Assembly (NCBI GenBank): GCA_965248535.1
Contig: CBDFJR010000002.1
Location: 1,888,001-1,952,000, forward strand
DNA length: 64,000 bases
Direction of reading: 5' to 3'
From: Phormidesmis sp.
GTDB lineage: Bacteria; Cyanobacteriota; Cyanobacteriia; Leptolyngbyales; Leptolyngbyaceae
Shown here: positions 13,357-15,312 of the stretch, piece by piece
Layout of the letters: every line of letters starts with the position of its first letter
Position numbering within the stretch: position 1 is the stretch's first letter
The notes under the pieces: generated by a model
What the model saw: the letters and a program-made list of their open reading frames with translations, nothing else
The model's database searches: none
Told to the model about the DNA's origin: nothing
Program-made: the position numbers and the translations under genes

Positions 13357-13428
13357 TCTTGCACCTCTTGCACCCTAAATCCCCCATTCTGGGGGACTTT
13401 GAGCCTTAGTATTGGAGGATTTGAGGGC
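13357..13428. repeat. Palindromic cyanobacterial dispersed repeat preceded by a 9-bp tandem duplication
   Basis: TCTTGCACC x2; CCCTAAATCC...GGATTTGAGGG outer arms; inner TCCCCCA-TTC-TGGGGGA hairpin. Confidence 0.65.
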
Positions 13429-13516
13429 GATTAATAAGCTTGTGGCTAACGTGCTCTTGTGCGTTCTCCAATTACCCTCACAACCTAGTGATGAGCATCG
13501 GAAGTCCGTTTTAGAT

Positions 13517-13882
13517 TTAAAATCGCTGGTATAAAATCAATCGATTGCCCTCTGGGTCATAGGCGTAAATTTCTCTGCCGTGAGAGGGCGTGAGAATCTC
13601 TCCCGGTGGAGGATAGCCCATTTGAGTTAGATGCCCGATCGCCGCTTCTAGATCCTCAACCTCTAGACATAAACTCATGGCGGGGAATGGAGTCGAAACA
13701 GGGGGCTGGTCTAGAGTGGGCTGATAGATTCCCAATCGCAAGCTAGGAAGCTGAAACTCTGCATAAACATGGGGAATCAGCAACGTGGGTTCTAAACCGA
13801 GTAGACGATCGTAGAACTCGATCGCTCGATCAAACTGATTTGCCGCCAAAGTCACCCACGCCGATCGACAGACAAATTTCAT
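13517..13882 (-). CDS. VOC (glyoxalase/bleomycin resistance) family protein
   Basis: AIEFYDRLLG, LEVEDLE, YAYDPEGNRL. Confidence 0.88.
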   Translation of the reverse strand: MKFVCRSAWVTLAANQFDRAIEFYDRLLGLEPTLLIPHVYAEFQLPSLRLGIYQPTLDQPPVSTPFPAMSLCLEVEDLEAAIGHLTQMGYPPPGEILTPSHGREIYAYDPEGNRLILYQRF

Positions 13883-13979
13883 GGAAAACCTCCGAGAAAC
13901 CCTGATGCTTCAGTACAGGGAGGGATAGGAGCGGCGACTGGATCGAGTCGCCAATCTCTTAGGCTTCTCACAGAATAGA

Positions 13980-13988
13980 TGCTATACT
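13980..13988 (+). promoter_or_regulatory. Extended -10 promoter of tnpB (probably leaderless mRNA)
   Basis: TG-c-TATACT ending 7 nt before the ATG at 13996. Confidence 0.6.
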
Positions 13989-13995
13989 GTGAGGC

Positions 13996-15168
13996 ATGAC
14001 GCAGAAAGCCTTCAAGTACAGAATTTATCCAACGCCTGAGCAAGAATCCTTGCTCAGGCGCACGATGGGCTGTGCTCGCTTGGTGTATAACCGCGCCCTT
14101 GCCTTGCGAACTGACGCATGGTACAACGACCAGAAACGAGTCGGATACAGCGAGACATCTGCGAGTTTGACTGAGTGGAAGAAAAACGAAAGCCTGAGCT
14201 TTCTCAATGAGGTCAGTTGCGTTCCGCTTCAACAGGGATTGAGGCATCTGCAAACCGCGTTCTCCAACTTCTTTGCAGGACGGGCGAACTATCCCACTTT
14301 CAAGAAGAAGCGAAATGGCGGCAGTGCAGAGTTCACCAAGTCTGCCTTTAAGTGGAAGGATGGGCAACTGTTCCTGGCAAAGTGCCTGGAGCCGCTCAAC
14401 ATTCGCTGGAGCCGCACTCTGCCCGATGGTGTTGTGCCTTCCACCGTCACGGTGAAGCTCTCTCCTGCTGGAAGATGGACGGTTTCTCTGCTGACGGATG
14501 TTGAGATTGAGCCATTGCCCACCTCTCTCAACCAAGTTGGGATGGATTTGGGCATCACCAGTTTGATCGCTCTGAGTACGGGCAAAAAGGTTGTCAATCC
14601 TAAAGGCTTCAAAGCAAAACGTGCCAAGCTCAACCGAGCGCAGAAAGCGTTGAGCCGGAAGCAAAAAGGGTCGAACAACCGATATAAAGCTCGAATCAAA
14701 GTCGCTAAAGTTCATGCAGAAATTAGCGATGCTAGAAAGGATTTTCTTCATAAGTTGACGACTCAATTGGTGCGTGAAAACCAAACCATCGCCGTTGAGG
14801 ATTTGGCTGTGAAGAACATGGTGAAGAATCGGAAACTTGCCAAATCCATCAGTGATGCGAGTTGGGGTGAATTGGTCAGACAACTTGAATATAAGTGCGA
14901 CTGGTACGGTCGAAACTTCGTCAAGATTGACCGTTGGTTTCCGAGTTCTAAACGATGTGGCAGTTGTGGTCACATCGTCGATCAGTTGCCGTTGAATATC
15001 CGGGAATGGGACTGTCCCAACTGTGAGATACATCACGACCGGGACATCAACGCAGCCAAAAACATACTCGCCGCAGGGCTTGCGGTGAAAGTCTGTGGAG
15101 CGAACATAAGACCGGATAGGCATAAGTCTGATGGCAGTTGCGATGAAGCAGAAAGGTCTAAGAAGTGA
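13996..15168 (+). CDS. tnpB: RNA-guided endonuclease TnpB
   Basis: KAFKYRIYPT N-terminal HTH; RuvC D (GMDLG), E (VEDL), D (DRDINAA); zinc finger CGSC..CPNC. Confidence 0.96.
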   Translation: MTQKAFKYRIYPTPEQESLLRRTMGCARLVYNRALALRTDAWYNDQKRVGYSETSASLTEWKKNESLSFLNEVSCVPLQQGLRHLQTAFSNFFAGRANYPTFKKKRNGGSAEFTKSAFKWKDGQLFLAKCLEPLNIRWSRTLPDGVVPSTVTVKLSPAGRWTVSLLTDVEIEPLPTSLNQVGMDLGITSLIALSTGKKVVNPKGFKAKRAKLNRAQKALSRKQKGSNNRYKARIKVAKVHAEISDARKDFLHKLTTQLVRENQTIAVEDLAVKNMVKNRKLAKSISDASWGELVRQLEYKCDWYGRNFVKIDRWFPSSKRCGSCGHIVDQLPLNIREWDCPNCEIHHDRDINAAKNILAAGLAVKVCGANIRPDRHKSDGSCDEAERSKK

Positions 15169-15230
15169 TTCTTGGAATCCCTGTACCTTTTAGGTTGGGG
15201 AGGATGTCAAAGTCAAAAATCTCTAAAAAA
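15060..15230 (+). ncRNA. Predicted TnpB omegaRNA (reRNA): scaffold to 15210 plus flank-derived guide; 5' boundary approximate
   Basis: Established TnpB architecture (scaffold overlaps tnpB 3' end and right end); GTCTGTGGAG..AGACC..GGCAGTTG..GATGAAGCAG blocks. Confidence 0.6.
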
Positions 15231-15312
15231 TCCGCTGATAGGCACAAGCAAAATCTGGCTCAAACGCTAAATTAAAAGGTGTGACTCGTCCTTATAATCG
15301 AGGGTTTTTGCA

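Follow-up and report, generated by a model that had tools for sequence, protein, structure and literature searches.

The locus described here lies in a window of 64,000 nt of Phormidesmis sp. DNA (the whole stretch that was analysed) and consists of a glyoxalase/VOC-family gene and a TnpB-only IS200/IS605 element of 1328 bp (13883-15210), which is inserted between the native leader and the ATG of the gene. The features of the locus are as follows:

13517..13882, minus strand: glyoxalase/VOC-family gene, 121 aa, intact, starting at the ATG that mirrors CAT at 13880-82
13879..13882, plus strand: target/cleavage tetranucleotide TCAT, which on the opposite strand is ATGA, the VOC start codon and the base after it
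13883..13960, plus strand: left end of the element, from DNA fold and covariation
13890-93, plus strand: 5' arm of the left end, CTCC (the Shine-Dalgarno-like GGAGG of the minus strand is 13889-93)
13896-99, plus strand: guide of the left end, GAAA
13900-04 with 13916-20, plus strand: left-end hairpin, CCCTG with CAGGG, from DNA fold and covariation
13928-31, plus strand: 3' arm of the left end, GGAG
about 13933-13952, plus strand: second left-end hairpin
13996..15168, plus strand: tnpB, 390 aa, apparently intact (Pfam OrfB_IS605, Cas12f1-like_TNB, HTH_OrfB_IS605)
15175..15210, plus strand: right end, with the same architecture in 22 related copies
15175-78, 15179-15200 and 15207-10, plus strand: right-end guide GAAT, right-end hairpin, and the cleavage site TCAA in which the tail ends
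15211..15312, minus strand: native leader of the VOC gene, now displaced, with its divergent promoter region; collinear with the sequence upstream of seven same-genus orthologs

On the plus strand the left junction (13879-13904) reads ...agacaaattTCAT|GGAAAACCTCCGAGAAACCCTG..., with TCAT at 13879-13882 and GGAAAACCTCC at 13883-13893, which on the minus strand is GGAGGTTTTCC-ATGA. Reading of this junction confirmed that TCAT at 13879-82 is the reverse complement of the ATGA of the VOC gene, as had been noticed from the letters alone, and the Shine-Dalgarno-like motif noticed with it is exact: on the minus strand the first 11 nt of the element give GGAGG-N6-ATG, placing GGAGG 6 nt before the start codon. 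The element ends in ...GAGGATGTCAA at 15210, and the right flank begins with AGTCAAAAATCTCTAA at 15211.

The VOC protein matches the Pfam Glyoxalase profile over residues 8-115 (profile positions 3-119 of 121), and orthologs were found in 34 of the 41 related genomes searched, this genome counted. Seven same-genus orthologs (L117-L123) start at the same ATG, and their upstream leaders are collinear with the reverse complement of 15211 onward, up to a divergent DeoC-type aldolase gene. These empty sites confirm both junctions and the displacement of the native leader by 1328 bp that the sequence-only reading had described. We also looked for GGAGG upstream of the ATG in the native leaders of the seven orthologs, and none of them carries it. 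The orthologs in same-genus genomes begin with ATGG, whereas the gene begins with ATGAAA here, so that only this lineage offered a (T)TCAT target. Codons 2-3 are AAATTT here and GGATTA or GGATTG in L117-L123 (window 13880-13888), a change that created the TTTCAT target. In three sequencing runs, contigs bridge the left-end junction and represent the filled allele. An excision polymorphism was considered and rejected, since the sole contig that skips 13870-15226 has 60 differences in 352 nt plus 16 replaced letters, indicating the empty site of a relative and not an excision.

The 390-aa product of tnpB carries the three Pfam domains PF01385, PF07282 and PF12323, as expected of a TnpB with a RuvC-like nuclease and a zinc ribbon, and matches the solved TnpB chain 8bf8_A (also 8ex9 and 8exa) with an E value of 7.8e-79; we take 8bf8_A to be the ISDra2 TnpB protein. 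Its best match is the designed nuclease 9yyg_A, in whose alignment appear the stretches MDLGI, IAVEDL and HDRD, presumably the RuvC catalytic motifs. There is no tnpA among the ORFs of the 1328-bp element. Eleven matches to Y1_Tnp (PF01797) are found elsewhere in the genome, and no TnpA locus in this genome is flanked by a left or right end of this type. Both ends have subterminal imperfect hairpins (13900-13920 and 15179-15200, the latter conserved in related copies) and no terminal inverted repeats, and there is no target duplication, the right flank lacking a repeated TCAT.

The sequence-only reading had derived TCAT from the left guide GAAA by the IS608 pairing rule, and the rule holds. 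One guide/cleavage mapping (c1 = complement of g2, c2 = complement of g1, A with A, c4 = complement of g4) fits the left-end pair GAAA/TCAT as well as both right-end pairs, which are GAAT/TCAA in 22 cases and CAAG/TGAC in 14 cases of the TTGAC type; the IS608 values used for comparison are those quoted in the sequence-only reading (AAAG/TTAC, GAAT/TCAA). On all these features the element is an ordinary member of the IS200/IS605 family (IS1341-type, TnpB-only). TCAT at 13879-13882 would also be the TAM of TnpB. The 3' part of tnpB, as far as the right end, presumably overlaps with the omega-RNA scaffold, and the first ~16-20 nt of 15211..15312 on the plus strand would act as the guide of this RNA. 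A freshwater metatranscriptome (share 0.05) gave, at 85% likeness, contigs only of tnpB-like genes of other organisms. These RNA contigs, of 85-95% likeness, are deepest at 15076-15149, the 3' end of tnpB, which is where the omega-RNA scaffold is expected, and the pile-up may reflect abundant guide RNA in relatives and does not bear on this organism.

The targets of IS608 and ISDra2 are TTAC or TTGAT. The present element resembles these two in its subterminal hairpins, in the 4-nt guide located 5' of each hairpin and specifying the cleavage site, in duplication-free insertion 3' of a fixed tetra- or pentanucleotide, and in a TnpB guide read from the right flank. It differs from them in its TCAT target, in the lack of tnpA, in an additional covarying outer stem that encloses the left guide and hairpin, and in belonging to a clade that is concentrated on start codons.

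A BLAST search of the 1328 bp against its own genome found two full-length relatives of ~80% identity, one shortened copy and a 416-bp derivative without cargo. All five copies thus known, that of the window included, have tcat| before the left end and GGATGTCAA| at the end. Two further copies, from a sister subfamily, show the same tcat| junction, which brings the total to 7. For copy B, empty sites were present at 5 of 5 same-genus loci examined. Four of the seven copies (A, B, C and F) occupy start codons, of ORFs of 121, 208, 113 and at least 1000 aa (P 0.012 against a null of 0.15); the host of copy B encodes an ADC-family protein and that of copy C an SMR/EamA-like protein. Copy D (G000:C5:249852-250864, L139) has a left end without the 12-nt outer-arm segment (TCAT|C-GAAACCCC...), and is preceded by bases (AAAGATGTCAT) similar to the right-end tail GAGGATGTCAA; its junction is possibly nested or rearranged. 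Derivatives of 320-650 bp that keep both ends and carry no cargo were also observed (G000:C5:1507598-1508013, which is L138, and L027, L072, L080, L078, L044 and L047), several of them likewise on start codons.

To describe the whole clade, the left-end core GAAACCC-N15-GGGAGGRATAG was scanned in one genome per species, leaving the flank and the first 12 nt unconstrained, and at least 115 loci were found. Among the matches listed, TCAT is located 8-26 nt upstream of the core in 103 of 115 loci, against about 6% expected for a 19-nt window by our own arithmetic, so that the junction is not a chance arrangement. The 12 listed loci without TCAT, some of them chance matches and some one-base variants, were left out; removal of three loci with less than 40 nt of flank and of one duplicate gave 99, and 98 of these have at least 273 nt of flank. 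Among these matches listed, an ORF of at least 90 aa begins at the mirrored ATG in 58 of the 98 de-duplicated sites (59%), compared with 216 of 1145 (19%) other ATGA sites of the same flanks (P 1.3e-18). The habit is not confined to one assembly, the start rates among the matches listed being 13/20 in Vreelandella rituensis, 5/10 in one Endozoicomonas genome and 40/68 in all others. The V. rituensis copies were also considered as a recent burst that could stand for unselected insertions, and this was abandoned because the full copies are only 89-96% identical and thus too old.

Longer flanks were available for 73 sites and, among the matches listed, place 42 at a start and 24 in intergenic-like sequence, with another long open frame at the junction in just 7, indicating strong selection against gene disruption. 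A fair null is therefore the share of start codons among non-disruptive ATGA sites. With a greedy ORF map of this genome the share is 15% for ATGA and 18% for ATGAA. In the pooled flanks, classified in the same way as the observed sites, it is 15-20%, rising to 34-35% when internal in-frame ATGs all count as starts. All of these nulls rest on crude ORF maps in place of curated annotation. The observed 42/66, among the matches listed, has a P of 1.5e-14 against 0.20 and of 2e-6 against 0.35.

A scan of metagenomes, limited to the lineage with the CTCC arm, gave 41 loci, which were reduced to 29 by removing 2 without TCAT, 4 with short flanks and 6 duplicates; 18 of the 29 insertions are at starts, or 17 of 27 if two pairs that possibly share a site are merged. 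Altogether, 134 independent insertions were available (98 from genomes, 7 in this genome and 29 from metagenomes) and, among the matches listed, 80 of them (60%) are on the ATG of an ORF of at least 90 aa. The suspicion that TCAT targets of copies and homologs coincide with start codons was thus borne out, with 80/134 against 15-20%, or 35% under the most generous null. Start-codon residence is a clade-wide habit, ~3-4 times what is given by TCAT availability together with the removal of gene-disrupting insertions, and this is preferential integration or retention at start codons.

We examined the host genes at the occupied starts for evidence that these starts are real. For 55 host ORFs the stop lies inside the locus, and 53 were submitted to Pfam after two near-duplicates were dropped; matches at E <=1e-5 were obtained for 39 of the 53, and in many cases the match starts at profile positions 1-3, no further than 5-20 residues into the protein. 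Among the start sites with both ends known, 9 of 22 have no in-frame upstream start in the reconstructed site, and in many of those sites a native AGGAG-type motif is found in the right flank, 7-13 nt from the ATG. Judged by these domains and reconstructed sites, the host ORFs are real genes with true N-termini. The invaded families of housekeeping type include CoaE, UbiA, a dTDP-sugar epimerase, MobB, CobU, a phycobilisome protein and a PolyA_pol head domain such as CCA-adding enzymes have. As such genes are occupied, their expression evidently survives insertion, and something in the left end would permit translation. One host ORF at an occupied start (L155:52-834) joins CoaE (15-166) to a partial Uma2 (167-253), and is either an odd fusion or the product of a mis-joined metagenome contig.

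The same left end is common to elements ending in ...GTCAA, which carry tnpB on the plus strand, and to elements ending in ...GTTGAC, which carry an ORF of 454-543 aa on the opposite strand. In locus L005 the opposite-strand ORF encodes IscB (RRXRR and HNH) and is preceded by a HEARO RNA. The loci L005:798-2545, L017, L043 and L024 show the left end TCAT|...GAAACCC-hairpin-GGGAGGGATAG together with a right end ...GGTAGTTGAC with the guide CAAG. TnpB-type and IscB-type elements appear to share one left-end design. The TTGAC-type relatives thus connect the clade with the HEARO RNA/ORF elements (RF02033), in which HEARO RNA accompanies the RRXRR/HNH protein IscB; the element of the window differs in carrying TnpB and in having no HEARO RNA, its locus (L116) giving no Rfam match. 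The original HEARO description, by Weinberg and colleagues in 2009, reportedly placed the integration of these elements next to ATGA or GTGA.

The arrangement of the IscB-type elements raises the alternative that insertions at start sites are retained because the promoter and 5' UTR of the host adjoin the right end. In IscB-type elements iscB is followed, on its own strand, by the host gene, and in L005 a single strand holds, in order, the native leader, the HEARO RNA (798-1032), iscB (1085-2455), the left end and the host ATG (2546). The host promoter would then transcribe the external guide, the HEARO scaffold and iscB, and a copy could restore itself after excision; elements of the TnpB type, which share the ends and the transposase, would inherit the habit. 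A recent study reports that IscB guides are transcribed from outside the element and that IscB, in contrast to TnpB, tends to share the orientation of the gene upstream of it (Meers et al. 2023, 10.1101/2023.03.14.532601). The external transcription on which guide production depends suggests this kind of capture, and 8 of 12 TTGAC-type (IscB-type) sites are at starts among the matches listed. It leaves unexplained, however, the equal rate of the TCAA-type (TnpB-type) sites, 14/22 among the matches listed, in which the host promoter is antisense to tnpB and to the guide RNA, and the lack of an orientation bias for TnpB that this study reports (10.1101/2023.03.14.532601) also speaks against it. 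The tally excludes two rows whose flank was too short and one false right end. We regard retention by transcription as possible rather than probable, and it is compatible with the explanation that we prefer.

Two other causes of the habit were tried and rejected. Accessibility of single-stranded DNA was discarded for this genome, as the mean unpaired probability of TCAT on contig C2 is 0.556 at 250 starts and 0.592 at 250 intergenic sites, which is the wrong direction. Recognition of the target through the complement of the Shine-Dalgarno sequence was considered in view of a C enrichment in the right flank at +9 to +11, which is 45-55% at start sites (n=22) and 25% at the others (n=12); with these small numbers, an enrichment at start sites alone looks like a property of real starts and not of targeting.

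The role of the GGAGG motif was examined in 77 distinct left ends aligned without gaps. The sequence-only reading had cautioned that the CTCC at 13890-93 also pairs with the GGAG at 13928-31, and covariation supports this pairing. The four positions of CTCC pair with the four that follow GGGAGGGATAG (GGAG here) across the 77 left ends, and for pairs 7:48, 8:47 and 9:46 both partners are altered in 28, 20 and 21 of the 77, respectively, with GC, CG and UA types. Paired cells amount to 86.7%, against 41-56% with the partner slid, and the observed covariation score was reached by 0 of 500 shuffles. The arms of other lineages include GCGC, TCGC, GGAC and CACC; at the genome sites, among the matches listed, GCGC is found in 49, CTCC in 23 and TCGC in 14, others being rarer. 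The covariation of the CTCC arm indicates that it is constrained by the structure of the transposon end while its sequence is free to vary.

According to the second alternative, which was the broader proposal of the sequence-only reading, the element evolved to land on ATGA and carries its own Shine-Dalgarno sequence, by which host translation is kept and the insertion is tolerated or rewires expression. Several observations are consistent with this: the spacing of 6 nt between GGAGG and ATG is suitable, the motif is absent from the seven native leaders, housekeeping-type genes tolerate insertion, and the start-codon excess is real. In addition, among the matches listed, Shine-Dalgarno-like motifs located 4-10 nt from the junction are found in 39 of 103 left ends and in at least three contexts (CCTCCGA, CCTCGCGA and TCTCCGCGA/TCTCCGTGA), and this recurrence could reflect some selection for ribosome binding. 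Against it, CTCC is one arm of a covarying stem, and GCGC, the commonest arm, offers no Shine-Dalgarno sequence yet is at starts in 33/49 insertions, compared with 11/23 for CTCC, among the matches listed. Of the left ends that have GGAG or GAGG at a distance of 4-10 nt from the junction, 19/39 are at starts, and of those without it 42/64 (Fisher P 0.10, among the matches listed), and with the metagenome set added the comparison is 37/68 against 42/64, again among the matches listed. Left ends without the motif are at starts at least as often, so that start-codon residence is independent of it. As weaker points, GGAGG is partly paired in the predicted minus-strand leader, whose fold is no better than that of shuffles (z -0.45), and a simple scan, weak evidence either way, found no minus-strand sigma-70-like promoter inside the element.

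Of that proposal, the excess at ATGA starts thus stood, and the adaptation for supplying a ribosome-binding site did not, given the covarying arm and the counts of 42/64 and 37/68; as a whole we consider it unlikely. Judged from these alignments, the minus-strand GGAGG is primarily structural and is not what places the clade at start codons. It can plausibly serve the VOC gene as a substitute Shine-Dalgarno sequence, and an adaptive role in this lineage is plausible as well, which would not extend to a general mechanism. IS1, IS10 and ISAba1 give outward expression signals through hybrid or outward promoters. The present case is similar in that, upstream of a host gene, the end of a mobile element stands in place of the native signals, and differs in that the candidate signal, whose function is putative, is a Shine-Dalgarno sequence in a structural stem and not a promoter. 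A terminator-like hairpin with a T run was also seen on the minus strand inside tnpB (14203-14188), the strand of read-through from the displaced VOC promoter; it is the one such site on the minus strand within the element, where 2.3 are expected by chance.

That start codons are simply among the few harmless TCAT sites left after intragenic insertions have been purged, without any preference, is very improbable, since the scarcity of intragenic insertions (7/73 among the matches listed) does point to strong purifying selection but first start codons make up only 15-20% of non-disruptive ATGA sites compared with the 42/66 observed among the matches listed, the excess persists (P 2e-6) even with all in-frame internal ATGs taken as starts (0.35), and the null is generous in counting essential genes as available.

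We therefore favour, as the probable account of the locus, a TnpB-only IS element sitting at the VOC start codon, a clade with a start-codon excess, and a GGAGG that is chiefly a stem arm. The element would be a non-autonomous, IS1341-type unit moved as single-stranded DNA by a Y1 TnpA acting in trans. The left-end guide GAAA, next to its hairpin, would specify TCAT, and the element would be joined directly 3' of this tetranucleotide with no duplication. Since TCAT mirrors ATGA, start codons followed by A are one class of targets, and here the element entered exactly between the leader and the ATG of the VOC gene, facing away from the gene. The clade with this left end is widespread, with TnpB, IscB or no cargo, and about 60% of its independent insertions are on start codons. 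In the present lineage the arm of the stem that encloses the guide and the hairpin happens to be CTCC, at 6 nt from the junction.

What is unusual is how strongly the clade concentrates on start codons, more than the TCAT/ATGA mirror and purifying selection would give. A literature search for a start-codon habit of TCAT/TTCAT elements, the original HEARO paper lying outside it, found no paper stating one. A similar case is ISGst5, an IscB element of Geobacillus stearothermophilus, for which TTCAT 5' of the left end is given as TAM and target (Meers et al. 2023, 10.1101/2023.03.14.532601). In the accessible part of that study (10.1101/2023.03.14.532601) an orientation bias is reported and not start-codon residence, and the element of the window differs further in carrying TnpB.

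With about 60% of the copies of the clade on starts, including those of housekeeping-type genes, the insertion must be compatible with gene expression. Start-codon residence implies that the guides of such nucleases are systematically 5'-UTR sequences, and for many genes the start and the upstream signals may be called wrongly by annotation pipelines. The case also indicates that a sequence resembling a Shine-Dalgarno at the end of a transposon can arise as a side effect of the structure of that end and not as an adaptation. Cas12 and Cas9 descend from IS200/IS605 elements and their TnpB and IscB nucleases, which now serve in genome editing. We tentatively propose, as a speculation that goes beyond the favoured account, that the TCAT clade homes to start codons, TCAT/TTCAT having been fixed as target and TAM because it would place the element behind a promoter and 5' UTR; its guides would then be 5'-UTR sequences, and some left ends would keep the gene translated. 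If this is true, RNA-guided regulators that bind at gene starts would have natural precursors in such copies.

Outside the element, a palindromic repeat of ~30 nt (CCCTAAATCCCCCATTCTGGGGGACTTTGAG) was observed at window positions 13373-13402, downstream of a holin-like gene, with about 15 copies in the genome. The bin at 13374-13447 that contains this repeat shows very high depth in the sequencing runs matched to the window.
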